Part shown: piece after piece, positions 8,375 to 63,320 of the stretch
Layout of the letters: every line of letters begins with the position of its first letter
Position numbering within the stretch: the first letter of the stretch is position 1
Notes under the pieces: generated by a model
Told to the model about the DNA's origin: nothing
The model's database searches: none
The model's input: only the letters and a program-made list of their open reading frames with translations
Translations under genes and position numbers: made by a program
Assembly: GCA_965238125.1 (NCBI GenBank)
Contig: OZ250179.1
Location: 5,237,271 to 5,301,270, forward strand
Source: Bryobacterales bacterium
Lineage (GTDB): Bacteria > Acidobacteriota > Terriglobia > Bryobacterales > UBA6623
Length of the DNA: 64,000 nt
Reading direction: 5' to 3'

Positions 8375-8406
8375 TCCCCGGCTCCCACCCGATGCGTACG
8401 CGGAGC

Positions 8407-8613
8407 CCCTACATCCGTGGCCGTAGAATAACTTTCGCGGCTCTTTGAGTTTTCCGGTTCAGGGCACCGCCGCAGGATTGCTGTTAATAACAATCGATGT
8501 CACAAACAGACAAATTTTTTCGTCCAGGACGCTGCGTCCGCTCGGTTTCCGGGTCCGTCAAGGGCGGTGAAGACGCTTATCTGCCGGATTGTTCATGCGA
8601 ACCGGATTTCGCG
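8407..8613 (-). repeat. Inverted-repeat copy B1 (junction-module spacer + TGTGACATCGATTGTTATTAA box + 3' extension)
   Basis: Reverse complement is near-identical over about 207 bp to 37715-37921. The box lies at 8484-8504. It sits directly downstream of kinase-TolB gene 1 and abuts the convergent ThuA stop. Confidence 0.85.
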
Positions 8614-8657
8614 ACAGTAATCCTCAGACGAGCGCTATCTAGTTCGTTTCGGGGGAC

Positions 8658-11410: not shown

Positions 11411-11500
11411 GACAGCCCGATTTTACCGTGATTCAGATAACTGCTGATAACAATCGATGTCATGAACTATTACATTTTTCGTCCCCAGGTGCTTGAGACG
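11411..11500 (-). promoter_or_regulatory. Conserved kinase leader module (box + TAAAAT 9 nt before the ATG)
   Basis: TGATAACAATCGATGTCATG box at 11445-11464. TAAAAT (minus strand) at 11425-11420, with exactly 9 nt to ATG 11410 and no purine-rich SD. Homologous to 52187-52260 and 59525-59600. Confidence 0.5.
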
Positions 11501-12963: not shown

Positions 12964-13302
12964 CTAGCGGTGTTCGTTTCGAGGCCGACTGGTTGGGCAG
13001 ACGACGAAGGCGACGGCTTCGGCCTCTGTTTCCCGCATGCGGTGCGTGGTCTGCCGGCGATACGTCTGATGGAGGAGTTCGTGTGCGAACTCGTGCGCGA
13101 GGGTTGCGAACTCCTCTCCAGGCGGCAGTCCCGGGAGGAGCGTGATGTGCGCTCCGCGAGAGCACCCGTGAGCGGGAGCGATGCTCCGTGAGTACGCGTG
13201 ATGCCCCACTTTGCGATGACCGCCTTCAGGCGCGGTGTGGAGGACGGGGGAGAGCCCTGCACTGGACCGAGTTCTGGGAGCGGACGACCGCTTGTTCGCT
13301 TA
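12964..13302 (-). pseudogene. Zincin-type metallopeptidase fragment (ImmA/IrrE- or ArdC-C-terminal-like), 5' end cut by IS630
   Basis: ...GAHITLLPGLPPGEEFATLAHEFAHELLHQ...RETEAEAVAFVVC (HExxH plus downstream E). The reading frame runs straight into the IS630 left end at 13303. Confidence 0.55.
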
Positions 13303-14340
13303 CTGAGTCTCGCATAATATACTGTGAATCGAGACAAAGAGAAGACTGTTTCCAGAAAGCGGTAATCAAGCGCGGTTTGCGGCGCATTCGCCGCAGCGCT
13401 TTGCGGGCGCGCTCGTCGAGTTCCCAGTAGTCCTTCGGGCAGACGTTGGGCAACTCGTGCTGCTTCCAGTACGCCCAAATGTATTCCACCGGGTTCAACT
13501 CCGGCGCATAGGGCGGCAAGTACTCCGTTGCGATGTGATCCTCGGAGAGCTGGATGAACTCCCGCACCAGGCGGCTGCGGTGCGCCGGCAGCCGGTCCCA
13601 GACGATCAGCAGTGGGCCGTCGATGTGGCGCACCAAAGCCTTCAGGAAGTCGATGACCTCCAGCTCGCCGATCGCGCCGGGATAGAGCCGGAAGTAAAAG
13701 TTGCGCAACGTCAGCCCGGCCGACACCGACAGCTTGTCCCAGTTGAAGTTGAACTCCAACACCGGTGTCTCGCCGCGCGGCGCCCAGGTGCGGCAACGAT
13801 GCGGCTTCTGACTCAATCCGCTTTCGTCGATGAAGACGATCGTACGTTCTTCTTTGCGGGCTTTTTTTTAATGGCCGGCCAAGTCTTGCGCTGCCAGCCG
13901 CGGATGGCCTCTTCGTTGCGCTCCCGCGCTTTGCCGACGGGCCGTTGCGGGCTCCAACCGAGCGCCCGCAGGATCTTCCAGACATGGCCCTCGTGATAGC
14001 GCACGCCGAACTCGTCTCCGATCAGACGAGCGACCCGCGGACAGCTCCACAGCGGCGTCGGGAAGCCGTGCGCCTCGGGGCCTTCCAGCAGCAACGCCTC
14101 GAGGCGTTCGAGCTGCGCGGCGTCCAACAGCGGCTTACGGCCGGCGCGGCCGGCCTGGCGCAACCCGGCTTCGCCGTCACGCCGGTATCGTCGCAGCCAC
14201 TCGCTGACGCTTTGCCGCGCGACCTTCAATCGCCTCGCTGTCTCGGACTGACTACAGCCTTGCTCGACCAACCGGATCGCTTTGAAACGGCGCTTCTCCA
14301 GGGCCTCGAAATCCCGCCGTACGCCTTTTGTATTTCCCAT
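13226..14340 (-). CDS. IS630 transposase (HTH orfA + DDE orfB joined by -1 frameshift)
   Basis: MGNTKGVRRDFEALEKRRF...HTH; slippery A AAA AAG (T-run 13862-13869 on the plus strand). A -1 read gives ...IKKKARKEERTIVFIDESGLSQKPHRCRTWAPRGETP...DRLPAHRS...PPYAPELNPVEYIW. The stop seen in copy 4 is TCA here (G13326 versus C28627), so the ORF reads 33 codons into flanking DNA. Confidence 0.8.
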
Positions 14341-20312: not shown

Positions 20313-20542
20313 GAGGCTCAAGGGAAAGCGAGCTCCTCAACTACCTCGACCTGCAGAAGAGTGTCGAGCCGCGCTCGGTCCGCACGCTGCGTGCGAGGTG
20401 GCGGGAGCTGGAAACGGAGCCACGGACCCGGCTAAACGGGCACGAAGGGGGAAACCTCGGATACAGCCAAGCGGGGTTCCTGACGGGCCACCGCGCCAGT
20501 TCCCGACCCTACCAAGCCATGTCACTTTCTTCTTGGCGGCTG

Positions 20543-21393
20543 CCGGCCGCGCCGGCCGCAAGCCGCTATTAGACGCCACGCAGCTCGAACGCCTGGAGAT
20601 CCTGCTGCTCGAAGGCCCCGAGGCGCACGGCTTCCCGACGCCGTTGTGGAGCTGTCCGCGGGTGGCTCGTCTGATCCGAGACGAGTTCGGCGTGCGCTAT
20701 CACGAGGGCCATGTCTGGAAGATCCTGCGGGCGCTCGGCTGGAGCCCGCAACGCCCGGTCGGCAAAGCCCGCGAGCGCAACGAAGAGGCCATCCGCGACT
20801 GGAAGTGCAAGAGGTGGCCGGCCATTAAAAAAAAGCCCGCAAACAAGACCGCACGATCGTCTTCATCGACGAAAGCGGATGGAGTCAGAAGCCGCATCGT
20901 TGCCGCACCTGGGCGCCGCGCGGCGAGACGCCGCTGCTGGAGTTCAACTTCAATTGGCAGAAGCTTTCGGTGTCGGCCGGGTTGACGTTGCGCAACTTTT
21001 ACTTTCGGCTCTATCCCGGCGCGATTGGCGAGTTGGAGGTCATCGACTTTCTGAAGGCCTTGGTTCGCCACATGGACGGCCCGTTGATGATCGTCTGGGA
21101 CCGCTTGCCGGCGCATCGCAGTCGGATGGTGCGAGAGTTCATTGAACTCTCGCAAGGCCATATCGTGACGGAGTAATTGCCGGCGTATGCGCCGGAGCTG
21201 AATCCGATGGAATACATCTGGGCGTACTGGAAACAGCACGAGTTGCCGAACGTCTGTCCGAAGGACTACTGGGAACTCGACGAACGTGCCCGCAAAACGC
21301 TGCGGCGCATGCGCCGCAAACCGCGCTTGATTACCGCTTTCTGGAAACAGTCTTCTCTTTGTCTCGATTGACAGGATATTATGCGAGACTCAA
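20543..21393 (+). mobile_element. IS630-family copy 2, 5'-truncated and decayed
   Basis: Homology to copies 1 and 4 starts inside orfA (AGRKPLLDATQLERLE...). In-frame TAA at 21174-21176 (HIVTE*LPAYAPELNP). Roughly 90% identity by eye. Right end ...GCGAGACTCAA + TA at 21394-21395. Confidence 0.8.
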
Positions 21394-21395
21394 TA

Positions 21396-21650
21396 GGCGA
21401 TCCTGTGGAGAACTTCCCGGCCACGAACGAGCGCGTGAATCTAGATGGAGAGCGTAACTATCTGATCCTTGAAGCGGAGGGGCGCGGCCACTACGTGGGC
21501 TGCAATCTTTCGGTCGACCATATCAATCCCATCCCGAACTTCGGCTGGTTTGGAGAGGGAGATGATTTCTTTTGGATTGATGCGGAGAAGGATCCTTCCA
21601 TGCGGGGAACCGGAACTGAGGATTATTTCTGCGCAGCATGGGGGCAGCTA
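21396..21650 (+). pseudogene. DUF2961 / GH172-like fragment
   Basis: YVGCNLSVDHINPIPNFGWFGEGDDFFWIDAEKDPSMRGTGTEDYFCAAWG; the N-terminus is cut by IS630 copy 2 and the C-terminus is lost. Confidence 0.55.
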
Positions 21651-25840: not shown

Positions 25841-26766
25841 GTGAAACGCATCAAGTTCGGGGTCATCGGCCTCGGTTGGTTTGGTGAGAAGCATTGCGAG
25901 ACGCTTTTCGATCTGCCCCAGGTAGAATTGTTCGCCCTGTGCACACGGCGGCAGGAACGTCTCAAGGAGTTGGCCGACCGGTTCCAAGTGTCACGGGTAT
26001 ATACCGACTACAACGAATTGCTCGCCGACTCGGCTTTGGAAGCGGTCTCGGTCGTCACCATGTGGGACCAGCACGTGGGTCCCACCCTGGCAGCACTGGA
26101 GGCCGGCAAACACGTTTTTTTAGAAAAGCCAATGGCTTCTACTCTGGTTGACTGTGAAGCCATCGTGCGAGCTGCCAATGCCTCCTCCAAGGCTTTCATG
26201 GTGGGCCACATTTGCCGCTTCAATCCTCGCCACGCCGCAGCCAAGGCCGAAATCGACTCCGGAGCTATCGGCAAGATTGTCTCCATGTACGCCCGCCGCA
26301 ACATTCCCGCTTCGGTCAGTGAGGGCGTGCTCGACAAGATGGGCCCGATCATCGGTGACGCCGTGCACGACACGGATTTGATGCTGTGGTTCAGTGGAGG
26401 CACAATCCAGACTGCCTACGCGCAGACGCTATCTGTACGAGGCCTGAGACATCCTGACCTCGGCTGGACCATGTACCGTTTTGAGGACGGCGCCATCGGG
26501 GTGTGCGAAAACGTCTGGTTTCTGCCGCGGAATACTCCTTTCCAGATCGACGAGCGCATTGAGGTCATTGGGACCGAGGGATCACTTCACATCCACGAAA
26601 CGCATCCCAACTTCTCCGTGTGCGACCGGGACGGCTGGCGTTCTCCTGACACGACCTACTGGCCGCTCTTGCACGGAGTCCGCTCGGGGGCTCTACGCGA
26701 GGAACTTGCGTACTTCGCAAACTGCCTGCTTGCGAGTAACAAGCCCGAGATCGTCACGCCTGAAGG
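25841..26766 (+). pseudogene. Gfo/Idh/MocA oxidoreductase, 3'-truncated by an IS630 fragment
   Basis: GTG 25841 preceded by AAGGGGG. IKFGVIGLGWFGEKH (Rossmann), VFLEKPMA. Family similarity stops at ...NKPEIVTPEG where IS630 antisense sequence begins; the 502-aa ORF in the track is a read-through chimera. Confidence 0.8.
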
Positions 26767-27326
26767 ACGATCGTACGTTCTTCTTTGCGGGCTTTTTTTT
26801 AATGGCCGGCCAAGTCTTGCGCTGCCAGCCGCGGATGGCCTCTTCGTTGCGCTCCCGCGCTTTGCCGACGGGCCGTTGCGGGCTCCAACCGAGCGCCCGC
26901 AGGATCTTCCAGACATGGCCCTCGTGATAGCGCACGCCGAACTCGTCTCCGATCAGACGAGCGACCCGCGGACAGCTCCACAGCGGCGTCGGGAAGCCGT
27001 GCGCCTCGGGGCCTTCCAGCAGCAACGCCTCGAGGCGTTCGAGCTGCGCGGCGTCCAACAGCGGCTTACGGCCGGCGCGGCCGGCCTGGCGCAACCCGGC
27101 TTCGCCGTCACGCCGGTATCGTCGCAGCCACTCGCTGACGCTTTGCCGCGCGACCTTCAATCGCCTCGCTGTCTCGGACTGACTACAGCCTTGCTCGACC
27201 AACCGGATCGCTTTGAAACGGCGCTTCTCCAGGGCCTCGAAATCCCGCCGTACGCCTTTTGTATTTCCCATACATACAAAGACGTACGTACCCCAAAAAA
27301 GTGTCACTTTATTTTGCGAGACTCAA
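26767..27326 (-). mobile_element. IS630-family copy 3: 5' half only
   Basis: Near-identical to the orfA half of copies 1 and 4, from the right IR (TA at 27327-27328) to about 25 nt beyond the slippery run (26793-26800). The DDE half is deleted. Confidence 0.85.
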
Positions 27327-27328
27327 TA

Positions 27329-28601
27329 GGTGAGGCTTCACGCGTTTGACTTCGTAGCTCGTTCCCTCTTCCTTGATGTCGTACCAATAGGTGCCGAGGA
27401 AACCGTGAGTGGACAACTCGTTGACCAGAAACCGCCCTTGGGCCTCTTTCGGAAAGTGACGATTGCGAATGATCTCCATACCCGCGGAGGGGGCGGTACC
27501 TTCCGGGGCGAAGGAAAGCGGAGGATTCCCCCATCGACGAGGCTTCCTCTTGGGATAGACGAAATTGGCGGTCAAGATCGGACGGCTATAGTAGTTCCCG
27601 CCGGAGGCGTCTAGCAGCAGCCATTGTCCCCATTGATCAAACACCTGTCCCCATGGATTCGCGAATCCATGCGAAATCAAAACGTCGAATCGCTGCGATC
27701 CAGGCCCGTAGCGGAAAACACCGGAGTTATATAACCGTCGGGGGCCGTAGGGCGTTTCTACCTGCGTATGGAAGAAGGTGCCTTCCATGAAATAAAGCCC
27801 GCCGCCGGGTCCCCATCGGTAGTTGTTGATGGAGTGCTCGACATCCTCGGATCCGAAGCCATGCAAGACCATGCGGACCTCGTCCGCATGGTTGTCCCCA
27901 TCCGTATCCTTGGCATGGATGATATGCGGAACCTGGGAAATGTAGGCGCCTCCATCACCCAGGGCAAAACCATGAATCATGTTGAGCTTGTCTATAAAGA
28001 CCGTATGCTTGTCCGCCACGCCGTTCTGATCGGTGTCTTCGAGAATAACGATCGAGTCCGAGGGCTGCTCCCCCGGAATCGGCTGTGGCCAGGTGGGTGT
28101 GTTGGCGACCCACAGGCGGCCCTCGGCATCGAAATTCATCGCCATTGGGTTCCCAATCGGAAAATCTTCTTCCGAGGCGAAGAGGTTGATTGCGTAGCCC
28201 TTGGGTAGCCGGAATGCCCTGCGGGATTCCCGCGGGCTCAAAACCTTGACACCTTGATATTCATCGGGTCCTTTGGGCCTTGGCGCAGTGGCCTTGTATT
28301 GGGGCGTCGGGTGCCAAACCGGATTCCCCTGTGGAACCTGTTGCCAGACCTGTTCGGGGCTGGGCTTGGCCATCTGCCGGATCTTCTGATCATAAGCTTC
28401 AATGATCTGATCGTACTCAGCCATCTCTTCCGGCAAGTTCTCCGCCCCTTCCATCTTGTTACGCTCGCCATGAATGTACTCAGCGTTGGGCCCGCGCCAG
28501 CGTATGAAAAAGTAGTAGTTCTTTTCGTAAATGATCCGGCGAAGCGCCTCGGCAGTAGCGCTTCCGGCAGCATCCGGTGATGCAGTGTCACTCACCAGAC
28601 C
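27329..28601 (-). pseudogene. Large PVC-type protein, middle segment (membrane-bound-dehydrogenase/beta-propeller domain)
   Basis: FRLPKGYAINLFASEEDFPIGNPMAMNFDAEGRLWVANT...ILEDTDQNGVADKHTVF...DTDGDNHADE...WGPGGGLYF resembles TIGR02604-type domains. Bounded by IS630 copy 4 (5' side) and the IS630 fragment (3' side); the C-terminal remainder is absent. Confidence 0.75.
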
Positions 28602-28603
28602 TA

Positions 28604-29696
28604 CTGAGTCTCGCATAATATACTGTCAATCGAGACAAAGAGAAGACTGTTTCCAGAAAGCGGTAATCAAGCGCGGTTTGCGGCGCATTCGCCGCAGCGC
28701 TTTGCGGGCGCGCTCGTCGAGTTCCCAGTAGTCCTTCGGGCAGACGTTGGGCAACTCGTGCTGCTTCCAGTACGCCCAAATGTATTCCACCGGGTTCAAC
28801 TCCGGCGCATAGGGCGGCAAGTACTCCGTTGCGATGTGATCCTCGGAGAGCTGGATGAACTCCCGCACCAGGCGGCTGCGGTGCGCCGGCAGCCGGTCCC
28901 AGACGATCAGCAGTGGGCCGTCGATGTGGCGCACCAAAGCCTTCAGGAAGTCGATGACCTCCAGCTCGCCGATCGCGCCGGGATAGAGCCGGAAGTAAAA
29001 GTTGCGCAACGTCAGCCCGGCCGACACCGACAGCTTGTCCCAGTTGAAGTTGAACTCCAACACCGGTGTCTCGCCGCGCGGCGCCCAGGTGCGGCAACGA
29101 TGCGGCTTCTGACTCAATCCGCTTTCGTCGATGAAGACGATCGTACGTTCTTCTTTGCGGGCTTTTTTTTAATGGCCGGCCAAGTCTTGCGCTGCCAGCC
29201 GCGGATGGCCTCTTCGTTGCGCTCCCGCGCTTTGCCGACGGGCCGTTGCGGGCTCCAACCGAGCGCCCGCAGGATCTTCCAGACATGGCCCTCGTGATAG
29301 CGCACGCCGAACTCGTCTCCGATCAGACGAGCGACCCGCGGACAGCTCCACAGCGGCGTCGGGAAGCCGTGCGCCTCGGGGCCTTCCAGCAGCAACGCCT
29401 CGAGGCGTTCGAGCTGCGCGGCGTCCAGCAGCGGCTTACGGCCGGCGCGGCCAGCCTGGCGCAACCCGGCTTCGCCGTCACGCCGGTATCGTCGCAGCCA
29501 CTCGCTGACGCTTTGCCGCGCGACCTTCAATCGCCTCGCTGTCTCGGACTGACTACAGCCTTGCTCGACCAACCGGATCGCTTTGAAACGGCGCTTCTCC
29601 AGGGCCTCGAAATCCCGCCGTACGCCTTTTGTATTTCCCATACATACAAAGACGTACGTACCCCAAAAAGATGTCACTTTATTTTGCGAGACTCAA
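28604..29696 (-). mobile_element. IS630-family copy 4 (1093 bp, intact)
   Basis: Same IRs as copy 1. TA at 28602-28603 and 29697-29698. Inserted inside an ORF that is restored in frame when the IS plus one TA is removed. Confidence 0.9.
28626..29641 (-). CDS. IS630 transposase (orfA/orfB, -1 frameshift at 29163-29170)
   Basis: ATG 29641, A AAA AAG slippery site, orfB ends ...AFWKQSSLCLD-stop at 28626. Confidence 0.85.
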
Positions 29697-30487: not shown

Positions 30488-30905
30488 GCCCCGACTCTCC
30501 TCGCACTCTACGACGCCGTTTCATCGAGTTCGGCCCGCCCGACTCGCGACTTGGTTCCCCAAAAGCACCGGCAAACATCACGTTGTCTCCCCGCGTCACA
30601 AGGACGACACCGCTGAAGTCTCGGTGTAACGCGCGACGAGTCTTTCGATCCCTTGGGAGATTGCGGTGTCTTCCGATTGAGCGGCCGGTTCAGGCCCGTC
30701 CCGCAGGCAAGCAGTCAATCGGAACAAGAGTCTAATCCACATTTGCCCACAACATGCAGAACTCTCTCCCCTGCCCCTTCACCGAGCCTCTCAGCGATCT
30801 TGTAGTGGCTGATGGTTTTGCCAATCAAGATGGGGACATTGTACCGCTACGAGGGATTGGTGTTGATAACAATCGTTCCGTCCATCAATCGGATTTTTCA
30901 GCTCA
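30488..30905 (-). repeat. Inverted-repeat copy A2: kinase 5' module + serine-hydrolase 5' fragment
   Basis: Partner of 2741-3128. Partial box TGATAACAATCG at 30864-30875, TACAAT (minus) 30843-30838, 9 nt, TTG 30828, LIGKTISHYKIAERLGEG, then MWIRLLFRLTACL...FSGVVLVTRGDNVMFAGAFGEPSRE with frame breaks. Confidence 0.75.
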
Positions 30906-31939: not shown

Positions 31940-33606
31940 CCCGGATTTCCACTTTAGTTTCGGTTCTGCTAACCATCGGGTGGACTCGGACGCCTTTATT
32001 TATGCGGGCTTGAAAGCACTCAAGGCGCTGAGGAGATCAACACCCAATGGGTGAAAAAGAAAACAAACCGTTTCAGCTCACCTTCAATGGATTTCTCAAG
32101 GTCGATTTCCAAGGATCGCGAGTCACCTCGGATGGCGGGCTGATTCTCATTCGCGAACTGGACGAACGACTCGGACTAGGCAAGCTGATAGACGAGCATC
32201 TGACGGATTCGCGGCAAGGCTCGAACAAGAAGTTCCCGTTCGTCGATCTGCTGCGACAGTCGGTCTACTCCCGCTTGGCGGGCTACGAGGATCTCAACGA
32301 CGCCGTTCGTGTCTCCGCCGATCCAACCTTTCGGCTGATTGGCTCGAAGAAGAACTGGGATCGCGGCGCGGCGCTGACCTCCCGGCTGCAGAGCTTCGAG
32401 ACCGCCATGCTCGCCGGCGACGAGAATCTGATCGGGCTGATGGCGGTGAACCGCGAGTTGATCGCGCAAGCCGAGGCCGGTGATGACTCCGAGTGCGTCG
32501 TGCTGGACATGGACTCTACCGAGAGCCCCGTCCACGGCCGGCAGGAAGGCAGCGCCTACAACGGCCACTTCGAGTCGGTCTGCTACCACCCACTGTTGCT
32601 GTTCAACCAGCACGGCGATTGCTTGGCGGCAAAGTTGCGACCGGGCAACGTGTCCAGCGCCGAGGACTGGGACGAGCTGCTGCTGCCGGAAATCGAACGC
32701 CAACAGGCGGAGGGCAAACAGGTGACGTTCCGGGCCGATGCCGCCTTCGCCAAGCCGGATATTTACGAGACGTTGGAGGAGCGCGGCGTGGACTACGTGA
32801 TTCGCATCCCGGCCAACAAGAGCCTGGAGCTGGAGATCGAAGATATCCTGTTTCGTCCGCCGGGCAGGCCGAGCGCAAAGCCCCTGGTGCGCTACAGGAG
32901 CTTTCGGTATCAGGCCGCGAGCTGGTCGAAGTCCCGGCGGGTTGTTGCGAAGGTCGAGCATCACCAAGGTGAGTTGTTTCCTCGCGTCGGTTTCATCGTC
33001 ACGAGCATGGCCTTGCCGAGCCGCTCGCTGGTGCGGTTCTACAACAAGCGCGGCACGGCGGAGCAGTGGATCAAGGAAGGCAAACAAGCGACGCATTGGA
33101 CAAGGCTGTCATGCCATCGGTTCCGGGCCAACGAAGTGCGACTGCAACTCAGCGTGCTGGCCTATAACCTGGGGAACCTATGGCGGAGGCTCGGGCTGCC
33201 GCAACGGATCAAGAGCTGGTCGCTGACGAGCTTGCAACAGCGGCTGATGAAGACGGGCGGTAGGCTGGTCAAGCATGCGCGGTACTATTGGCTGCTGTTG
33301 GCCGAAGGACATCTGAACCGGCGGCTGTTCGGCGACATGCTGCATAGGATCTGGGCGCTGCCTGTGCCGGGTGGGTAGCGTTGCCCGGGCGAGGATCAAC
33401 AGTTTTTGGCTCCAAAAAGGTTTCGCAGGGAGCAGTGTCGGCCGGAGCGCCGTTCAGTCCGCTCAATCAACGTCTGTGAGCGGACGGACGAGCCCTGGCG
33501 CCTACCGGCGGAGGTGATGTGCAGGGTTCAGCGCGAAAAGACGTGGTATTCGGCGCAGCGGGGGTGTATCCTGTGACCGTGCCAGGGCCAAAATGGAAAT
33601 CCTGGC
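31940..33606 (+). mobile_element. IS1380-family insertion sequence, copy A (1667 bp)
   Basis: Ends CCCGGATTTCCACTTT... / ...AAAATGGAAATCCTGGC (imperfect IRs). 4-bp duplication TTGG at 31936-31939 and 33607-33610. Near-identical to 56071-57737. Confidence 0.9.
32047..33378 (+). CDS. IS1380-family DDE transposase
   Basis: 443 aa. [60 protein letters not shown] and [10 protein letters not shown] are typical of IS1380. Confidence 0.9.
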   Translation: MGEKENKPFQLTFNGFLKVDFQGSRVTSDGGLILIRELDERLGLGKLIDEHLTDSRQGSNKKFPFVDLLRQSVYSRLAGYEDLNDAVRVSADPTFRLIGSKKNWDRGAALTSRLQSFETAMLAGDENLIGLMAVNRELIAQAEAGDDSECVVLDMDSTESPVHGRQEGSAYNGHFESVCYHPLLLFNQHGDCLAAKLRPGNVSSAEDWDELLLPEIERQQAEGKQVTFRADAAFAKPDIYETLEERGVDYVIRIPANKSLELEIEDILFRPPGRPSAKPLVRYRSFRYQAASWSKSRRVVAKVEHHQGELFPRVGFIVTSMALPSRSLVRFYNKRGTAEQWIKEGKQATHWTRLSCHRFRANEVRLQLSVLAYNLGNLWRRLGLPQRIKSWSLTSLQQRLMKTGGRLVKHARYYWLLLAEGHLNRRLFGDMLHRIWALPVPGG

Positions 33607-33767
33607 TTGGCCGATAAGGATATCCCATGTTCTCACAGCCTGTTGCGTGTCCCGCGAGGGGCGATTGCTGGTGGGAAATTATTTATCGGTACCTATCCGG
33701 CGCCGTGTGCCCCGCCCCGCCTAAGTCGTTGAAAACAATAGATACAGTCTGCACCGGGAAACGAATC

Positions 33768-34475: not shown

Positions 34476-35525
34476 CTAGGAACGGGTATCCACTTGAACA
34501 AGTGGCGAAGGCTTTCCGCTGAACTCCAGGGTCTGGCGGTCACGCCAGCGGTCGATGACGGACACCTGATGGACGCAGGAAACCGTGCAATACGGCGCGC
34601 AAGCCTTCTTCGTCATGTATTCGCGGCGGATATCCTCGCGGGTGTATTGCTCAAGAGGAATAGCGGGATGGCCTCGCTGTTGTGAGCAGTAATGGACCAG
34701 CCCGTTCTCGCAAACGTACAGGTAGCGGGCTCCGGCGCGGCACCACCACCAGTTATTCGCTTTGCCTTCGACGAGGCGTTTCTGGAACGGATTGTACTTG
34801 TTGATGCGCCCGAAGGAACTTTTCCCCAGGTCGCACACCTGCTCGAAGATGCTCTTCTGATGCGGACTCAGTGGGTTCAACTGCCCGCCGCCGTCGTGGA
34901 TGATTCCCACCGTCGTCGCGAGGCCGTAGGCTTGGGCACGCTGCGCGACCTCGAGCGCATCCTCGGGACGGTGGATGTCGGCGCCGAGGACAGAGTTGAT
35001 GTTGATGTGGAACTCCGCATGTTCGGCGAGCATGGCGAGTTTCTGGTCGAGGACTTTCAAACTTTTCTTTGAGACATCATCCGGCTGCACATTGTCGACG
35101 CTGATTTGAAGATGGTCGAGTCCTGCCTTGTTGAGCCGGTCGATGCGGTCCGGCATCAGAAAGTAGCCGTTGGTGAGCAGCCCGGCCATGATGCCGTGTT
35201 CGCGGATGCGGCGGATGACGTCGTCCAGATCCGGGTGCAACATCGGTTCGCCGCCGCTGAGCGTGATAATGCTCGTGCCAAGCCCCGCGAGATGATCGAT
35301 GCGACGGAAGAGTTCGTCGGTCGGTACGGGCGGTGAGTGATCGTCGAATTCGTTGCAGTAGGTGCAGGAAAGATTGCAGCGGCGAATCGGAATCAGATGG
35401 ACCAGAATCGGATGGTCCTTGTGCGCGAGGCCATGGGCGACCATGCGCATCTCGCGTGCTTTGCGGCGGAATGTCCGCCACTTGCCGCGCCAGGTGGAGG
35501 CGCGCCGGATGACCACAGGTTCCAT
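34476..35525 (-). CDS. Radical SAM protein
   Basis: IPIRRCNLSCTYCNE (CxxxCxxC), ITLSGGEPMLHPD, Cys-rich C-terminus (CRAGARYLYVCENGLVHYCS...CAPYCTVSC). The start is uncertain (35525 or an internal M). Confidence 0.8.
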   Translation of the reverse strand: MEPVVIRRASTWRGKWRTFRRKAREMRMVAHGLAHKDHPILVHLIPIRRCNLSCTYCNEFDDHSPPVPTDELFRRIDHLAGLGTSIITLSGGEPMLHPDLDDVIRRIREHGIMAGLLTNGYFLMPDRIDRLNKAGLDHLQISVDNVQPDDVSKKSLKVLDQKLAMLAEHAEFHININSVLGADIHRPEDALEVAQRAQAYGLATTVGIIHDGGGQLNPLSPHQKSIFEQVCDLGKSSFGRINKYNPFQKRLVEGKANNWWWCRAGARYLYVCENGLVHYCSQQRGHPAIPLEQYTREDIRREYMTKKACAPYCTVSCVHQVSVIDRWRDRQTLEFSGKPSPLVQVDTRS

Positions 35526-35794
35526 GCTCTACCGAAGGGCTTATGCGAGAGCGAACGAAGGATCAGGTAGAATGCGACGACCGTTGGTCTGACACTGCGG
35601 TTAAGATCCGGTTTCCCAAAAGAGAGGGTTGCGTGAGATTCCGCAGATCGCCGTAGGTCAGCTAGAAAATCCTCCGGGGGAACTCATGTCTGTAGTTGTA
35701 TCGCATTTCGCTGCGAAAGGAAACGTCGTAGGGTCGGCAGGAAGCCGAAAGCTGACTAGTTGGACCTCACCGGCGAAGACCGAAAGAATTGAGT

Positions 35795-36340: not shown

Positions 36341-36552
36341 GGTGTCAACTCATGGATCTGTCAACTGCTTTGGGGCCTCTCGGGTCGACTGCCTCAACCG
36401 GATTCGCTCCGATTTCGGAGCCCCTTGTATGTTTGGAAGAGTGGGGAGGGAGTGGGTCGGTACGCTTGTTAGGCGTGCCCTTCTTGCGGCCGCCGGTCTT
36501 ACGTCCATGTGCCACGTTCTACTTCAGTCTACTTTAGACAGAGAACCCGCCC

Positions 36553-36627
36553 CGGCAGGAGCCACAGGACGAAGTCGTAAGCCTTGCCGACGACAACAGC
36601 CGGTTCACGTTCCTGGGCGGGCGGCAT
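36553..36627 (-). pseudogene. Avd-like (DGR accessory variability determinant) 5' fragment
   Basis: ATG 36627: MPPAQEREPAVVVGKAYDFVLWLLP resembles the conserved N-terminus of Avd/four-helix-bundle proteins (..YD..WL.P..). Similarity ends after about 25 codons. Confidence 0.4.
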
Positions 36628-36659
36628 GGCCCATGCTAGCAAGGCGAAAAAAATTTCGG

Positions 36660-36676
36660 CTGGGGCTTCGCCCCAG
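36660..36676 (-). other. GC-rich hairpin CTGGGGC-GAA-GCCCCAG between the putative VR and avd
   Basis: 7-bp perfect stem with a 3-nt loop, read on the minus strand, about 20 nt after the stop of the FGE-like ORF. Confidence 0.5.
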
Positions 36677-36697
36677 TAAAGGGAAAAGGAAAAAGGG

Positions 36698-37000
36698 TCA
36701 AGAGGAAACTTCCCGGGCACAACGGAAGCCGATAACGTTGCCCCCGCCGTCAGGCCGGTGCCAGAGGCGGAGCGACACGCGCAGGACCTCGGGAAGGTTG
36801 TACCACGACCCGCCGCGCAAAACCCGCACCTCGCCGTTCTTCGGCCCCGACGGATTCTCGGACGGAGACTTGGCGTAGTAGCCCGCGCCGTACCAGTCGG
36901 AGCACCATTCAAACACATTCCCCGTCAGGTCCTGAATCCCGTCCGGCGTCGCGCCACGCGGATAGAGTCCAACCGGCGTCGGATGACCAACGTGAGGCTG
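36698..37000 (-). pseudogene. FGE-sulfatase (C-type-lectin fold) domain, C-terminal fragment; possible DGR variable-region carrier
   Basis: HPTPVGLYPRGATPDGIQDLTGNVFEWCSDWYGAGYY...VRVLRGGSWYNLPEVLRVSLRLWHRPDGGGNVIGFRCA. The N-terminal two thirds of the domain are missing. Confidence 0.6.
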
Positions 37001-37106
37001 CGGGAGGAAGGTCATCACCTTGTTAAATTGAAAACCTGTCGCAATTTTTCGGCGAAAGGCGACAGGCGTCGGGGCTTCTCCGCAGCCTCCTCCGGGACGG
37101 TAGGCG

Positions 37107-37370
37107 CTAGCCTTCCCGGCGCTTGTCCTGGATGAGCTCCCGTAGCTCTTGACTGGCCTTGAAGAAGGGGGATCTTCTTGGGAGGAACTTGCACCGGTTG
37201 GCCCGATTTGGGATTCCGTGCGATACGCCCTCGGCGCGCCGCCGAGTGCCGAAGCTTCCAAACCTTCGAATCTCAACTCTCCGGCCCTCTCGCAGTGCTT
37301 TAACTACGCTCTCGAAGACGGTTTCCACAATTGCCGTAGCCTCTCTGCGAGAAACATTCGACGACGCGTG
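37107..37370 (-). pseudogene. HU/IHF-family DNA-binding protein, decayed
   Basis: ...LSRREATAIVETVFESVVKALREGRRVEIRRFGSFGTR (frame 0), ARRGRIARNPKSGQPVQVPPKKIP (shifted frame), FFKASQELRELI (frame 0 again). No clear start codon. Confidence 0.65.
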
Positions 37371-37714: not shown

Positions 37715-37921
37715 TGGGAAATCGGGTTCGCATGAACAATCCGGCAGATAAGCGTCTTCACCGCCCTTGACGGACCCGGAAACCGAGCGGACGCAGCGTC
37801 CTGGACGAAAAAATTTGTCTGTTTGTGACATCGATTGTTATTAACAGCAATCCTGCGGCGGTGCCCTGAACCGGAAAACTCAAAGAGCCGCGAAAGTTAT
37901 TCTACGGCCACGGATGTAGGG
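37715..37921 (+). repeat. Inverted-repeat copy B2 (junction-module spacer + box + 3' extension)
   Basis: Near-identical reverse complement of 8407-8613. Box TGTGACATCGATTGTTATTAA at 37824-37844. Confidence 0.85.
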
Positions 37922-37965: not shown

Positions 37966-38133
37966 ATGCCCCGCAAACTCCTTCGCGAAGCGTTTGTGAT
38001 TGTGGTCGAGACGGCTGTGTTGCTGGCGTTGCTAGCCGCGTTGGGACTGCCGGGTCGCCGCCCGCCGAAAGCCGAGGCCGCCGTCAGCTTCGCAGAAACT
38101 CTTCAGACCCAAGGCGTCCGCCCGACTCAATGA
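37966..38133 (+). CDS. Hypothetical 55-aa single-TM protein
   Basis: Below the ORF-track cut-off. AGGAGA at 37955-37960, 5 nt before the ATG. MPRKLLREAFVIVVETAVLLALLAALGLPGRRPPKAEAAVSF... Confidence 0.35.
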   Translation: MPRKLLREAFVIVVETAVLLALLAALGLPGRRPPKAEAAVSFAETLQTQGVRPTQ

Positions 38134-38301: not shown

Positions 38302-38396
38302 AACAGCCTGGGCAGGCTCACCAACACATCGCCGGGTTTCGCCGCCCGCCGAAAGCCGAACAGCCTGGGCAGGCTCACCAACACATCGCCGGGTTT
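38302..38396. repeat. 38-bp direct repeat x2 (38302-38339, 38359-38396)
   Basis: AACAGCCTGGGCAGGCTCACCAACACATCGCCGGGTTT occurs twice. The 21-bp stretch spanning the spacer (38339-38359) also occurs at 38055-38075. Confidence 0.8.
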
Positions 38397-38633
38397 GACC
38401 GAGCCGAGCATCTTCAAGAAAGGCTCGAAGATGACGGGGGGGTCCTCGCTTTCCGTCGGCTCGCCCAAAATCGTCAGCGCCCGCCCCGCTAGGGTGGTCC
38501 CCGGGCGAATGGCCTGAATTTCATGAGGCAGCACCTGGTCGGGCAACCCCATCTCATCGAGAATGTCACTCAACGCGCCGGTGTAAGGAAGTGCGGCAAA
38601 TCGTTCAATGAGGTTGGAATCCGTGTCTGCCAT
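38397..38633 (-). pseudogene. RraA-family protein, N-terminal fragment
   Basis: ATG 38633: MADTDSNLIERFAALPYTGALSDILDEMGLPDQVLPHEIQAIRPGTTLAGRALTI...VKPGDVLVS, then the duplicated junction sequence instead of the rest of the fold. Confidence 0.55.
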
Positions 38634-52186: not shown

Positions 52187-52400
52187 GACAGCCCGATTCT
52201 ACCGTGATACAGATACCTGGTGATAACAATCGATGTCACAAACAGAAGGATTATTTTCGCCCAAGACGCCGCCCGGCGACGGTTTGCGACTCCGGCACGA
52301 CGTTCCGCCACGCTCCAGCGTGCGAAAGCGAGTGCCATCCGGATTTCCCGACAGTGGTCCGTGCATCAGCGCTATGTACCGGGCACCGTTTTCACATCCT
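52187..52400 (-). promoter_or_regulatory. Conserved kinase leader/junction module
   Basis: TAGAAT (minus) 52201-52196 with 9 nt to ATG 52186. Box TGATAACAATCGATGTCACA at 52221-52240. Spacer block CCGGATTTCCCGACAG..CAGCGCTATGTAC at 52336-52378. Confidence 0.55.
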
Positions 52401-53765: not shown

Positions 53766-56070
53766 TCACTGTTCGAATAGCACCGGCAGATTCAACGGCG
53801 GATTCCGGCTGCCTTCGAAGTCGATCACCAGGGGCATGGTCGGCCCTGTTGTCACCAGGCTTTCCGGCAGTTGAATGTTGATCTGCGCGAGGCCCGCGAA
53901 GCGCGGCGTCAGGCCGGCGAACAAGACCTTCGCAGCCTCGCCGCCAACTGTGACCACGGGTGTCACCCGCGCCCGAGCGAGCGGCGAATCCGCTGTAGCC
54001 GCGCCCGTCGCGGGCGGATTGCTGACGCCGCCGATGCCGGTCACGAAGATGATGAGAACATCTCCCGGCTTGGCGGGATTAGCGGCGGTGATCAGCGCCT
54101 CGTCCGGGTGACGCTGGATGATCGGTTCGCCGCTGTTGGGGTTGATGAATACAGCCGGCGCGAACTCCGCCATCAGGACGGGCTCAATCGGGCTGTCTTC
54201 TCCATTACGCGTCACCACCACGTTGACTTGCCCGGGCGAGGTGACCTCGAAGGGAACCTGGAAGTTGATCTGTTTGGGCGAGACGAAGATCAGCGGCGCC
54301 TCCCAGCCGTCCAGGCGCACGCGAGCACCGCCCAACTCGAACGGTAGAGGCAGGTCTCCTCGGCCTTGAGCATATCGTCCGCCAGCTCGGCCCCGAAGAT
54401 GCTGCCGATCCCGCCAGGGGCGACAACCGCCTGGAATTGCGCCGCATCCACGATGCCAGCGGGCAAGATCGCCGGCGTTGTCGGGGGTTCCACGCCGCTG
54501 CCTTCCAAGGCGATCTCGACTCGCGGGCGGTTCGGATCATTCGACGAGATGATCAGCCGTCCGGTGAAATCGCCCAGCGACGGCGGGTCAAAAGCGATAG
54601 AGGGCGTAACCTGCTGCCCAGGGTTCAGCGTCAGTGCCTCCTGGCTGACGGGCGCCGGTGTCAGCGCCGCTACATCGGGGTCTTGGCGGAAGGCGTCGCC
54701 TTCGATAGTCAGTTCGACGCTCATCTCCACCTGGCTGCGGTTGATGATTTCAATCGGCAAGGCCACGGGTTCTCCAACCGGCGTGTCGCCGAAGTCCAGG
54801 GTTTCCGATTCCACGCCGACGAAGAGAATCGGCTGCTCCGGATCAAGTCCGGTGGCCTGCAGCATCACGTCCAGCGTCGGCTGGTCCGCGGCGTTCGAGG
54901 TCAGCGTCAGCGTTCCCGTTTCCTTCCCGGTCATGCCAGGGGTGAACTCAACGACAAAATCTCGCGACGTGCCGGCGCGCACCTGCATCGGCAGGTTCGA
55001 CAGCACCTGAAAGGCCGGGTTGTCTATGCCGGCGGAGTCGATCACCAGCGGACCCGTTCCGAGGCTCCTCACCTTGACGACGCCTTCGCTCAATTGCCCA
55101 ACGGGAGCGACGCCGAGGTCGGCCGGCGCGTCCACGGCAATGGCAGGCCTCTGAACGACGTTGAGCGGTCCGATCGTCTGTTCGGTCGTGTGGAAGCCGT
55201 CCGAGGCCTGCACCCGGAACAGCACGTTCTCGCCGCCTTCGATCAGAGCCGCGTTGAACGTCAAGGAGCTTCCCACGATATCGACGCCCAAGGGTAGCCA
55301 ACTTCCCCCGCCGTCGGGACTGTAGAGCGCGGCGAAAGTCAAAAGGTCGCCGTCCGCGTCGGAAGCTGTCCAAGCGATCGTGAGCGGCGTCGAAGCATCG
55401 AGGCTCGCGCCCGCGGTTGGCGAAGTGATCGCAAGCAACGGCGGGCTCGCGCTTGCGATGAGACTTGCTAACTCGTTGCTCCCTTGCATCAGGGCGATGA
55501 GGGTGCCGTCGGCGTGGTAAGGGAGAGCCGCTACGAAGGGCTGTTCGGAGCCGCCGCTGAAATCGGCGTCAAAGCAAGAGCGCTCGAGAACTCCGCCCCC
55601 GTTGCTCAGTTCGACGCAGCAATCTCCCGACTGTGGTCCGGGGGCAAGGAGCTTCGAGGCAGGGGCCCGATAGGCTGGATCGAGGCTCCCGCTCCCACCG
55701 CTGCGGACCGTTCCGCCGATGAGGAAAAACTCGCCGGGGTCGGCTTGCTGTTTTTCACGAAATGGCTGCCCGAGCGCCGCCGCCGAAAGCGGCGCGGCAA
55801 CAAACGGCCCGGTTAAAATTGTCTGAAAGAGGTTGATGTAGCTCGCGCCGGAAATCCAGCGATCGTCGCAAAACAGCTCCTTGACAACGAGTCCACCTTG
55901 GCTATCCAGGCCGAGTGCCGTGGGAAACTCGATACTACCCAAAGCCGGGCAAGGCCCGAGGACGTCTTCTGTCAGCACTTCGAATTCCCTAGCCAGCGCT
56001 ACAGCCAGTTCGATTTCCGCCTTCTCCCGCGGTCCCTCCGGCACGATAAAACTACCAAACACACTCTTGA
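53766..56070 (-). pseudogene. Large secreted protein, C-terminal part (choice-of-anchor-D/ASH-like Ig repeats + TIGR03437-type C-terminal domain), 3' of the IS1380 insertion
   Basis: ...LVIDSAGIDNPAFQVL...TLTLTSNAADQPTLDV..., ...IVDAAQFQAVVAPGGIGSIFGAELA... then (-1 shift near 54350-54360) ...LPLPFELGGARVRLDGWEAPLIFVSPKQINFQVP...AGLTPRFAGLAQINIQLP. The first 29 codons of track ORF 54290-56158 are IS sequence. Confidence 0.8.
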
Positions 56071-57737
56071 GCCAGGATTTCCATTTTGGCCCTGGCACGG
56101 TCACAGGATACACCCCCGCTGCGCCGAATACCACGTCTTTTCGCGCTGAACCCTGCACATCACCTCCGCCGGTAGGCGCCAGGGCTCGTCCGTCCGCTCA
56201 CAGACGTTGATTGAGCGGACTGAACGGCGCTCCGGCCGACACTGCTCCCTGCGAAACCTTTTTGGAGCCAAAAACTGTTGATCCTCGCCCGGGCAACGCT
56301 ACCCACCCGGCACAGGCAGCGCCCAGATCCTATGCAGCATGTCGCCGAACAGCCGCCGGTTCAGATGTCCTTCGGCCAACAGCAGCCAATAGTACCGCGC
56401 ATGCTTGACCAGCCTACCGCCCGTCTTCATCAGCCGCTGTTGCAAGCTCGTCAGCGACCAGCTCTTGATCCGTTGCGGCAGCCCGAGCCTCCGCCATAGG
56501 TTCCCCAGGTTATAGGCCAGCACGCTGAGTTGCAGTCGCACTTCGTTGGCCCGGAACCGATGGCATGACAGCCTTGTCCAATGCGTCGCTTGTTTGCCTT
56601 CCTTGATCCACTGCTCCGCCGTGCCGCGCTTGTTGTAGAACCGCACCAGCGAGCGGCTCGGCAAGGCCATGCTCGTGACGATGAAACCGACGCGAGGAAA
56701 CAACTCACCTTGGTGATGCTCGACCTTCGCAACAACCCGCCGGGACTTCGACCAACTCGCGGCCTGATACCGAAAGCTCCTGTAGCGCACCAGGGGCTTT
56801 GCGCTCGGCCTGCCCGGCGGACGAAACACGATATCTTCGATCTCCAGCTCCAGGCTCTTGTTGGCCGGGATGCGAATCACGTAGTCCACGCCGCGCTCCT
56901 CCAACGTCTCGTAAATATCCGGCTTGGTGAAGGCGGCATCGGCCCGGAACGTCACCTGTTTGCCCTCCGCCTGTTGGCGTTCGATTTCCGGCAGCAGCAG
57001 CTCGTCCCAGTCCTCGGCGCTGGACACGTTGCCCGGTCGCAACTTTGCCGCCAAGCAATCGCCGTGCTGGTTGAACAGCAACAGTGGGTGGTAGCAGACC
57101 GACTCGAAGTGGCCGTTGTAGGCGCTGCCTTCCTGCCGGCCGTGGACGGGGCTCTCGGTAGAGTCCATGTCCAGCACGACGCACGCGGAGTCATCACCGG
57201 CCTCGGCTTGCGCGATCAACTCGCGGTTCACCGCCATCAGCCCGATCAGATTCTCGTCGCCGGCGAGCATGGCGGTCTCGAAGCTCTGCAGCCGGGAGGT
57301 CAGCGCCGCGCCGCGATCCCAGTTCTTCTTCGAGCCAATCAGCCGAAAGGTTGGATCGGCGGAGACACGAACGGCGTCGTTGAGATCCTCGTAGCCCGCC
57401 AAGCGGGAGTAGACCGACTGTCGCAGCAGATCGACGAACGGGAACTTCTTGTTCGAGCCTTGCCGCGAATCCGTCAGATGCTCGTCTATCAGCTTGCCTA
57501 GTCCGAGTCGTTCGTCCAGTTCGCGAATGAGAATCAGCCCGCCATCCGAGGTGACTCGCGATCCTTGGAAATCGACCTTGAGAAATCCATTGAAGGTGAG
57601 CTGAAACGGTTTGTTTTCTTTTTCACCCATTGGGTGTTGATCTCCTCAGCGCCTTGAGTGCTTTCAAGCCCGCATAAATAAAGGCGTCCGAGTCCACCCG
57701 ATGGTTAGCAGAACCGAAACTAAAGTGGAAATCCGGG
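56071..57737 (-). mobile_element. IS1380-family insertion sequence, copy B (1667 bp)
   Basis: Same ends as copy A. 4-bp duplication TTGA at 56067-56070 and 57738-57741. Three amino-acid differences from the copy A transposase. Confidence 0.9.
56299..57630 (-). CDS. IS1380-family DDE transposase
   Basis: 443 aa, 440/443 identical to 32047-33378. Confidence 0.9.
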
Positions 57738-59524: not shown

Positions 59525-59733
59525 GCCGGTCCAATTCTACCTTGTTACAGATTGGTGTTGATAACAATCGATGTCACAAACAAACAGATTTTTTTCGTCC
59601 AGCGTGCGCCCTCGGCTTGGGTTGAGGGTCCACCGAGAGGCCGTGATACGTCTTGAGTCTCGGATTCGGAGTGCGAACCGGATTTCGCGACATCAATCCG
59701 CAAACAGGCGCTATGTAGTTCGTTTCGAGGGGG
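59525..59733 (-). promoter_or_regulatory. Conserved kinase leader/junction module (complete copy)
   Basis: TAGAAT (minus) 59539-59534 with 9 nt to ATG 59524. Box TGATAACAATCGATGTCACA at 59559-59578. Spacer block CCGGATTTCGCGACATCAATCCGCAAACAGGCGCTATGTAGTTCGTTTCG at 59668-59728. Confidence 0.55.
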
Positions 59734-61886: not shown

Positions 61887-63320
61887 GAGGATGTCCGATA
61901 GTTCGTAGAAAGTAGCGACTCTCCGCTCCGGGCCGATAGGCTCGGAGGAGTTTTTGTTTTTCGGAAAAAGGAGAGTCGCTATGAAGAGACAATATCAGAT
62001 CGACCGCGAGAACGCGGTCCGCCGATTCCGCAAGCAAGCCGAACAGAGCGAGCAGGAGTTGCAGCTGGACTTGCCGCTCAAGGAGGTCGCCGCCGCGTTG
62101 CAAGAAGGCGTCGGTCACTTGATGCGCCAGGCGGGCTTGGAACTCATGCAGCTCATCATGAGCAACGAGGTGCGCCATCTCGCCGGCGAACGCTACGAGC
62201 GCCGCGAGCCGGAGCAGCCTTTCCGCTGGGGACGCGAGAAAGGCTTTCTGGTCGTCGACGGACAGAAGGTTCCCATCGAGCGTCCGCGGATGCGCGGCCA
62301 GGACGGGCGCGAGCAACGCTTGGGCAGCTACGAGTTGTTTCGCCGCTCCGAACCGCTCGATGCCGCCGTTTGGGACAAGCTGATGCTGGGGCTGTCGACG
62401 CGCAACTATTCGAAGGCCGTGCGCGAATTCGCCGCATCCTACGGCATCGAAAAGTCTGCGGTGAGCGATCATTTCGTGCGCCTGAGTCGCGAAAAGCTGC
62501 ATGAGCTTGTGGAGCGTCCGCTGGACAAACTCAAGCTCTGCGTGATCTATCTCGACGGCATCGAGTTCAAGGGCCAACATCTGATCGTGGCTCTGGGAGT
62601 CGCCGTGGACGGGGCCAAAACGGTTCTCGGGCTACGGCAGGGCGCGAGTGAGAACGCGACAGTTGTCGGCGAGTTGCCGGATGATCTGGTCGAGCGCGCG
62701 GTCGACTTTTCCGTTCCCATGCTGTACGTGTTGGACGGTTCGAAAGCACTGAGGAAGGCGGTGCGTAAGCATGCCGGGAGCCAAGCGTTGTTGCAGCGGT
62801 GCCCGTTGCACAAGCGTCGCAACGTGACGGCTCATCTACCGGAGCCATACCGCAACGCGGTGGAGCGCAAGATGATCAACGCCTATCAGATGGCCCACTA
62901 CGACGATGCCAAGAAGGCGCTGCAGCGGTTGCACCGCGAGCTGATGGAGTTGAATCCGTCGGCGGCGCGCTCGTTGGAGGAGGGAATGGAGGAAACGCTG
63001 ACGGTGCATCGGCTCAAGATCGACGGCTTGTTGCGTCTGACGCTGACGACAACGAACCCGATCGAGTCGGCCTTCTCGACGGTCGATCGCATTTGCAGCC
63101 GAGTCAAGTGTTGGCGGCGCGGCGATCACCGCGAGCGCTGGGTGGGAGCCGGTCTGTGGCTGGCGGAGAGAAGCTTCCGTCGCGTGAAAGGTTACAAGCA
63201 GTTGCCCCAGCTGTTGGCGCAACTCGCTAAGCTCGACACACCACCTCCGGCTCAGGCCCGCGTGGCGTAAACTACAACCTGCGGAGAGCCGCGAGTTTCA
63301 ACGGAAATCCGGACATCCTC
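61887..63320 (+). mobile_element. IS256-family insertion sequence
   Basis: Imperfect terminal inverted repeats GAGGATGTCCGATAGTTCGTAGAAAGTAGCGACTCTCCGC / GAGGATGTCCGGATTTCCGTTGAAACTCGCGGCTCTCCGC (reverse complement of the right end). No 8-9-bp duplication recognisable. Confidence 0.75.
61981..63270 (+). CDS. IS256-family (Mutator-type) transposase
   Basis: ATG 61981; about 429 aa. LCVIYLDGIEFKGQHLIVALGVAVDGAKTVLG, MLYVLDGSKALRKAV, LQRCPLHKRRNV, TTNPIESAFS. Confidence 0.9.
   Translation: MKRQYQIDRENAVRRFRKQAEQSEQELQLDLPLKEVAAALQEGVGHLMRQAGLELMQLIMSNEVRHLAGERYERREPEQPFRWGREKGFLVVDGQKVPIERPRMRGQDGREQRLGSYELFRRSEPLDAAVWDKLMLGLSTRNYSKAVREFAASYGIEKSAVSDHFVRLSREKLHELVERPLDKLKLCVIYLDGIEFKGQHLIVALGVAVDGAKTVLGLRQGASENATVVGELPDDLVERAVDFSVPMLYVLDGSKALRKAVRKHAGSQALLQRCPLHKRRNVTAHLPEPYRNAVERKMINAYQMAHYDDAKKALQRLHRELMELNPSAARSLEEGMEETLTVHRLKIDGLLRLTLTTTNPIESAFSTVDRICSRVKCWRRGDHRERWVGAGLWLAERSFRRVKGYKQLPQLLAQLAKLDTPPPAQARVA

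Follow-up and report, generated by a model that had tools for sequence, protein, structure and literature searches.

The minus strand between positions 36553 and 36993 of the DNA analyzed here raises the question of whether a gene end, a hairpin and a short open reading frame (ORF) that follow one another are the remains of a diversity-generating retroelement (DGR), and whether such a remnant could still be active. The whole stretch of 64,000 nucleotides, henceforth referred to as the window, is part of a 6,921,829-bp contig. Its genes, among them DUF1549/DUF1553 and DUF1501 genes and Ser/Thr kinase-PD40 paralogues, are typical of Acidobacteriota/Planctomycetota chromosomes. We put the probability that 36553-36993, henceforth the stub, is the truncated and inactive remnant of a DGR at roughly 0.85 from the sequence comparisons detailed below. 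The stub spans ~440 bases, with all of its DGR-derived pieces on the minus strand. The kind of element is already known, and the lineage to which the stub belongs is known and abundant in Acidobacteriota (Bryobacteraceae, Terriglobia).

The target gene end and its intact relatives

A minus-strand ORF, 37276..36698, ends in ...VLRGGSWYNLPEVLRVSLRLWHRPDGGGNVIGFRCAREVSS* with its stop codon at 36700-36698. Residues 93-188 of this ORF match the Pfam FGE-sulfatase family PF03781 at profile positions 159-255 of 255 (E 3.3e-20), as expected from the first-pass annotation, which had placed an FGE-sulfatase/C-type-lectin C-terminus ending at 36698. Because the match is limited to the last 97 of the 255 profile positions, it represents a 3' gene fragment rather than a whole domain. 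The fragment was delimited to 36698..36993 on the minus strand (98 codons and the stop) by PF03781, phmmer and blastn, and corresponds to the C-terminal 38% of the FGE-sulfatase/C-type-lectin-fold domain. Unlike its relatives, it lacks the N-terminal part of that domain and everything upstream of it, which is NACHT or TIR in the relatives. The gene caller placed an ORF of 105 aa (P0001) on the fragment, which may therefore still be expressed.

Comparison was made with ~20 intact DGRs from Acidobacteriota (Bryobacteraceae) and from soil or peat metagenomes. Their gene order is a NACHT-FGE target, a pyrimidine tract, a GC hairpin, avd, the reverse transcriptase (RT), the template repeat (TR) and one or two TIR-FGE targets. 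Two of them served as references: L031 (JBEKMJ010000094.1, MAG SPRUCE_391, Bryobacteraceae), which turned up in an FGE-alignment scan of species-representative genomes, and L088 (Ga0073928_10007758). Both contain bAvd, RVT_1, NACHT-FGE and TIR-FGE by Pfam, with an avd of 119 aa and an RT of 355 aa that carries YVDD and matches Pfam RVT_1. In their TR/VR pairs, 13/15 to 21/22 of the mismatches fall at adenines. In such intact relatives, RT and Avd make cDNA from the TR RNA, a step that is error-prone at adenines; this cDNA takes the place of the VR, located 3' in the target, and the hairpin just 3' of the VR marks the acceptor site. The RT profile has at least 7995 relatives at E <= 1e-20, of which the named ones are Bryobacteraceae, Terriglobia and Acidobacteria.

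When the three targets of L031 were used as phmmer queries, the only match in the window was the segment 36698-36993 (E 1e-17 to 1e-21), and no second FGE piece was found anywhere in the window. Over 36553-36993 the stub shares ~67-72% nucleotide identity with the intact Bryobacteraceae and soil or peat DGRs. It has the same pattern at the target C-terminus as L031 and L088 (...GFRC[AV]REV..*), and the 20 loci of the Avd lineage likewise have a target ending in GFRC[VA]RE..P* located 33-115 nt upstream of avd.

The position of the VR was obtained from the TRs of five related DGRs (L085, L086, L088, L093 and L101), all of which align exactly to 36708-36831 on the minus strand with E values of 1e-7 to 1e-13. 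As the five heterologous TRs align to this segment only, the VR-equivalent segment of the stub is fixed. When each of these TRs is compared to its own VRs, 14/16 to 21/22 of the mismatches are at adenines. Against the heterologous TRs, the stub VR shows a mismatch rate of 0.69 at TR adenines and 0.25 at other bases. This adenine bias is only suggestive of past diversification, since non-DGR FGE-end controls (n = 9), above which it lies only marginally, gave 0.60 at adenines and 0.35 elsewhere.

The target end could, in principle, be the ordinary end of an FGE gene followed by a terminator hairpin, with the resemblance to Avd arising by chance. Most FGE relatives are indeed without a DGR link: in the scan of contigs from species-representative genomes, a TR was located within 6 kb of FGE-related C-termini at only ~6 of 80 genome loci, and an FGE end alone is therefore not diagnostic. 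A hairpin followed by a T-run also resembles an intrinsic terminator. An ordinary gene end does not explain, however, why the FGE domain is cut off at profile position 159, why the whole intergenic architecture is common to the stub and intact DGRs, or why the following ORF matches the Avd N-terminus with an E value of 2.4e-7 in exact register from residue 1. Chance resemblance to Avd was refuted by four lines of evidence given in the next section (the L031 Avd search, the lineage HMM, the covariation of the hairpin and an unbiased search), and the ordinary-gene-end explanation is considered extremely unlikely. Judged by these sequence comparisons, it is the 3' flank of an FGE end that is diagnostic of a DGR target, and the flank points to a DGR relic.

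Kaur et al. 2020 (eLife, PMC7159879) and Dore et al. 2024 (PNAS, PMC10907252) describe DGRs in which the diversified parts are the FGE/CLec sensor domains in conflict systems of the STAND-NTPase and TIR types. The NACHT-FGE and TIR-FGE targets of the stub's relatives have the same architecture as those DGRs. Compared to these STAND/TIR-linked systems, the stub has kept no more of the sensor domain than its final 98 residues, and the effector part is gone. Acidobacteria are mentioned in the text of neither of the two papers. The comparison set assembled here records an acidobacterial DGR lineage that is very abundant, its RT relatives numbering in the thousands, and whose targets are NACHT-FGE and TIR-FGE proteins.

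Intergenic signals and the start of avd

Between the target stop and the hairpin lies a pyrimidine tract, CCCTTTTTCCTTTTCCCTTTA (36677..36697, minus strand), that is shared with related intact DGRs, in which a tract beginning CCTTGATYCTTTTTCCCTTTTCC... is typical after the target stop. The GC-rich hairpin that follows, CTGGGGC-GAA-GCCCCAG (36660..36676, minus strand), starts 21 nt past the target stop codon. It consists of a 7-bp stem and a GAA loop, exactly as described in the first-pass annotation, and forms in the MFE as well as in the centroid DNA fold. The remainder of the intergenic region (36628..36659, minus strand) contains the A/T run CCGAAATTTTTTTCG and the avd leader. The same run is found in related loci, where GAAAATTTTTT usually comes after the hairpin.

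Although this is the window's sole hairpin with a stem of at least 7 bp and a GNA loop, the chance expectation is ~0.5, so that the hairpin is uninformative alone and meaningful only in context. That context is provided by the related loci. In 16 of 20 of them, the tract is followed by a perfect hairpin, GC-rich and at least 7 bp long, whose loop is GAA, GGA or GCA in most cases, and the hairpin of L101 is identical to that of the stub. RNAalifold analysis of 12 aligned intergenic regions recovered the 7-bp stem with compensatory changes in 5 of the 7 pairs. The order of tract, hairpin, A/T run and avd ATG in the window is the same as in the ~20 intact DGRs, which bears out the earlier description of target VR, hairpin and avd as the canonical DGR order. 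On the strength of its sequence, DNA fold, conservation and covariation, 36660-36676 is a putative DGR target-recognition hairpin/cruciform.

In the prototype DGR of Bordetella phage BPP-1, the hairpin serves as an acceptor-site signal, and what lies upstream of the VR is not required (Guo et al. 2011, PMC3240598). Hairpins/cruciforms of the BPP-1 type are GC-rich, lie a few to 34 bp downstream of the VR and have a 4-nt GRNA loop (PMC3240598). The stub resembles BPP-1 in that its VR is at the 3' end of a C-type-lectin-fold target, a GC-rich hairpin is located downstream, and the start of avd comes next after the target; in BPP-1, avd lies between the target and TR/RT. It differs in its loop, which has 3 nt in the stub and its lineage (GAA, GGA or GCA) compared to the 4-nt GRNA loop of BPP-1, and in the conserved pyrimidine tract that precedes the hairpin. 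The stub is also chromosomal rather than phage-borne, with both RT and TR missing, unlike BPP-1.

Across the L082-L103 lineage, a conserved pyrimidine tract comes after each active VR and leads to a GC hairpin, whose GNA loop has 3 nt, and on to GAAAATTTTTT. Examples of this module are found at 2196-2270 of L088 and at 1906-2015 and 5165-5250 of L031. A third VR of L031, which matches poorly, has no pyrimidine tract. Together, the pyrimidine tract and the hairpin with its 3-nt GNA loop may make up a form of the DGR target-recognition signal that has yet to be described. Its occurrence after active VRs could aid the annotation of targets and orphan VRs in soil metagenomes, and short DGR stubs become recognizable through lineage-specific intergenic signals of this kind.

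The A/T run and leader are followed by an ATG at 36627 that opens MPPAQEREPAVVVGKAYDFVLWLLP, the first 25 codons of an avd gene (36553..36627, minus strand). The frame then continues into seven unrelated codons and a stop, GRVLCLK* (36529..36552, minus strand), at which the foreign flank begins; intact relatives read K[AV]E.F.RSYRF in place of these residues. The stub N-terminus follows the L031/L088 pattern MPP..REEPAVVV.KAYDFVLWLLP. The L031 Avd begins MPPTNPEQPAIVVTKAYDLVLWLLPKAETFPRSYRF and the L088 Avd begins MPPPEREEPAVVVVKAYDFVLWLLPKAEGF, and many N-termini of the lineage are nearly identical to that of the stub.

A search of 1639 six-frame segments of the window with the L031 Avd returned the 36627 ORF as the sole match (E 1e-6, Avd residues 1-26). 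A lineage HMM was built from ~40 Avds, a metagenome scan with the L031 Avd having given 50 loci. The stub matches this HMM at positions 1-25 with an E value of 2.4e-7, and the runner-up in the window has an E value of 0.2. In an unbiased phmmer search of the 32-aa ORF against 1.84 billion representative proteins, four matches were obtained at E <= 1e-3. Three of these are short Avd-type proteins that align from residue 1 to residue 1 with 72-84% identity. The fourth, a repetitive BTB protein that aligns to the junk tail, was rejected as a repeat artefact. The 32-aa stub itself gives no match to Pfam bAvd (PF22296) or NCBIfam, for whose models it is too short; its full-length Avd relatives score 62-72 bits with PF22296 against a cut-off of 40. 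A word-index search with the avd stub padded to 46 aa produced no candidate. Taken from these sequence matches, 36627-36553 is confirmed as an Avd N-terminus, as had been supposed from its 25 codons on first reading.

Two outcomes had been named beforehand as counting against a DGR remnant, namely the absence of an Avd HMM match to the 25-aa start and an FGE C-terminus that is merely the end of an ordinary gene, and both came out in favor of the DGR-remnant reading. The lineage HMM match is the only significant one in the window, and the 3' flank of the FGE C-terminus matches that of ~20 intact DGRs, with a hairpin that covaries in 5/7 pairs.

Missing machinery, breakpoints and state of the stub

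Alignment of the window with the fetched DGR loci by blastn showed that homology ends at 36993-36988 on one side and at 36553 on the other. These limits were consistent across loci, the break at 36553 being seen with L088, L086 and L090, and they include the point at which similarity had previously been noted to stop. Synteny comparison revealed no counterpart of the flanking genes at any of the fetched DGR loci. L031 and L088 continue from this region into full avd, RT, TR and TIR-FGE targets, all of which are missing from the window.

Each missing component was searched for specifically. No window match to a DGR RT was observed with four RT queries in phmmer at E <= 10. An RT profile of 11 sequences run with --max gave a best window match of 13 bits beside an IS256 transposase. 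The weak RT-profile matches at 61.8-63.3 kb were discarded, as they adjoin or fall inside a Mutator/IS256-type transposase. The five related TRs match nothing in the window besides 36708-36831, and an ungapped scan for a second copy of 36698-36860 detected at most 49% identity elsewhere in the window. No C-terminal part of avd was found anywhere in the window with the lineage HMM. The earlier report of neither TR nor RT in the window thus held under all of these searches. The FGE-fold C-terminus, GC-rich hairpin and avd start of a target-side DGR remnant are all present, and the RT gene, TR/VR pair and complete avd of a functional DGR are all absent from the window. Since RT, TR and any further avd sequence are missing from the 64 kb, the stub is judged almost certainly inactive.

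What survives is only the junction between 'target 1' and avd, comprising 98 target codons that include the VR, the intergenic signals and 25 avd codons, with both ends cut off by unrelated DNA. The rest of the DGR was presumably lost by deletion or rearrangement within an IS-rich patchwork region. Neither the target piece nor the avd piece contains an internal stop or a frameshift, and the family-invariant residues are all kept; for this reason we infer that the truncation is fairly recent and not ancient. Little hinges on the stub itself. It serves as a clean example of DGR decay in which the target/avd junction has been kept and RT and TR have been lost.

A different possibility is that the stub is an orphan but active acceptor that is rewritten in trans by a cognate DGR elsewhere in the genome. 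The known target-side cis elements are all located within or downstream of the VR and are intact in the stub, the sequences upstream of the VR being dispensable in BPP-1 (Guo et al. 2011, PMC3240598), and the DGR lineage is very abundant in Acidobacteriota, as judged by its at least 7995 RT relatives. The target ORF, however, has lost 62% of the fold and any N-terminal effector domain, so that diversification would have no obvious product, and no TR lies in the 27-36 kb that flank the stub on each side. Rewriting in trans is thus considered unlikely. If it did occur, the stub would be a 'fossil acceptor' that makes no useful protein and acts as a neutral recorder of DGR activity.

An assembly artefact, such as a chimeric consensus of long metagenomic reads that conceals a real and intact DGR, was also considered. 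Several neighboring genes appear broken, an IHF-like gene carries two compensating frameshifts, one of them at a C5 run as is typical of homopolymer errors, and an odd 57-bp duplication includes an insert of 21 nt whose source lies 284 nt away. Sharp breakpoints that lead into unrelated DNA at either end cannot, however, arise from indel errors. The contig has a length of 6.9 Mb, composition across the junctions is uniform, and the window contains no other DGR part that could have been mis-joined. An artefact of this type is accordingly rated as very unlikely, and a genuinely truncated, inactive DGR relic is the preferred reading of the stub.

The surrounding patchwork

The stub lies in a ~5-kb patchwork of gene fragments (33.6-38.8 kb) just inside one copy of an inverted insertion sequence (IS), and composition is uniform across both the patchwork and the stub junctions. 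DUF1549/DUF1501 genes are located at 38.9-42.6 kb. The first-pass annotation had described the surroundings as gene fragments. This stood for an IHF/HU-like gene, for the tail of a kinase/PD40 paralogue, which was placed on the plus strand, and for a weak RraA-like N-terminus; the label 'TerS-like' did not stand. The protein so labeled, of 181 aa, is an HTH protein of phrog_645 (E 7e-17), and tblastn against 50,697 phage records returned no match for it. Its gene and a small ORF (MAHGRKTGGRKKGTPNK...) lie directly downstream of the avd stub (36515-35795, minus strand), and both could now be transcribed from the kept avd leader.

The IHF/HU-like pseudogene (37107-37370, minus strand) covers profile positions 26-89 of 90. 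With ~15-20 N-terminal codons missing, it yields RRGRIARNPKSGQPVQVPPKKIP only when a +1 frameshift and a subsequent -1 frameshift are allowed for, one of them at the C5 run. These frameshifts are either real decay or homopolymer errors of the long-read assembly. The patchwork also contains a large serine recombinase that is C-terminally truncated, the plus-strand kinase/PD40 tail with its downstream spacer, which is 98% identical over 213 nt to 8404-8616, and the RraA-like N-terminal piece (E 0.0015), which carries the 57-bp duplication. The kinase/PD40 gene that spans 8639-11410 is broken up as well, into two ORFs.

Within the RraA-like fragment, at 38302-38401, a 43-nt segment is repeated at a spacing of 57 nt. 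The 21 nt that bridge the two copies (TCGCCGCCCGCCGAAAGCCGA) are an exact copy of 38055-38075, located 284 nt away. The repeat resembles a scar left by template switching or microhomology repair.

An apparently intact radical SAM gene (34476-35531, minus strand) shares 96% nucleotide identity with ctg85880 of ENA ERZ28669063 (L132) over exactly the coding region, with unrelated flanks. Its cluster at 90% protein identity has members in three different genomic contexts. Capture of RT-made cDNA was considered as the origin of the patchwork and was rejected, as the substitutions are not adenine-biased and have ordinary spectra; those that distinguish the radical SAM gene from its 96% relative are mostly at third codon positions, and the same is true of the 8.4-kb/37.6-kb duplicate.

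The window as a whole is IS-rich. Two 1668-bp IS copies at 31940-33607 and 56070-57737 are 100% identical, inverted and encode a 443-aa DDE_Tnp_1_4 transposase. Because this inverted pair brackets 22.5 kb that include the DGR stub, the segment is invertible in principle. Copies with ~85% identity are present in other genomes (L133, L135). A second repeat family consists of ~860-bp copies at 13296-14154, 20542-21400 and 28600-29455 and a partial copy at 26766-27085, with identities of 91-100%, and an IS256/Mutator-type transposase is located at 61954-63270.

Scans of the window for Rfam families and tRNAs returned nothing. An intergenic motif of ~45 nt, GATTGnTGTTAATAACAATCGATGTCACAAACA..., which contains an imperfect palindrome, was observed beside the Ser/Thr-kinase/PD40 paralogues at 8476-8520, 11436-11480, 30855-30899, 52212-52256 and 59550-59594 and, in inverted orientation, at 37808-37852. 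The motif is a candidate for a shared operator or promoter.
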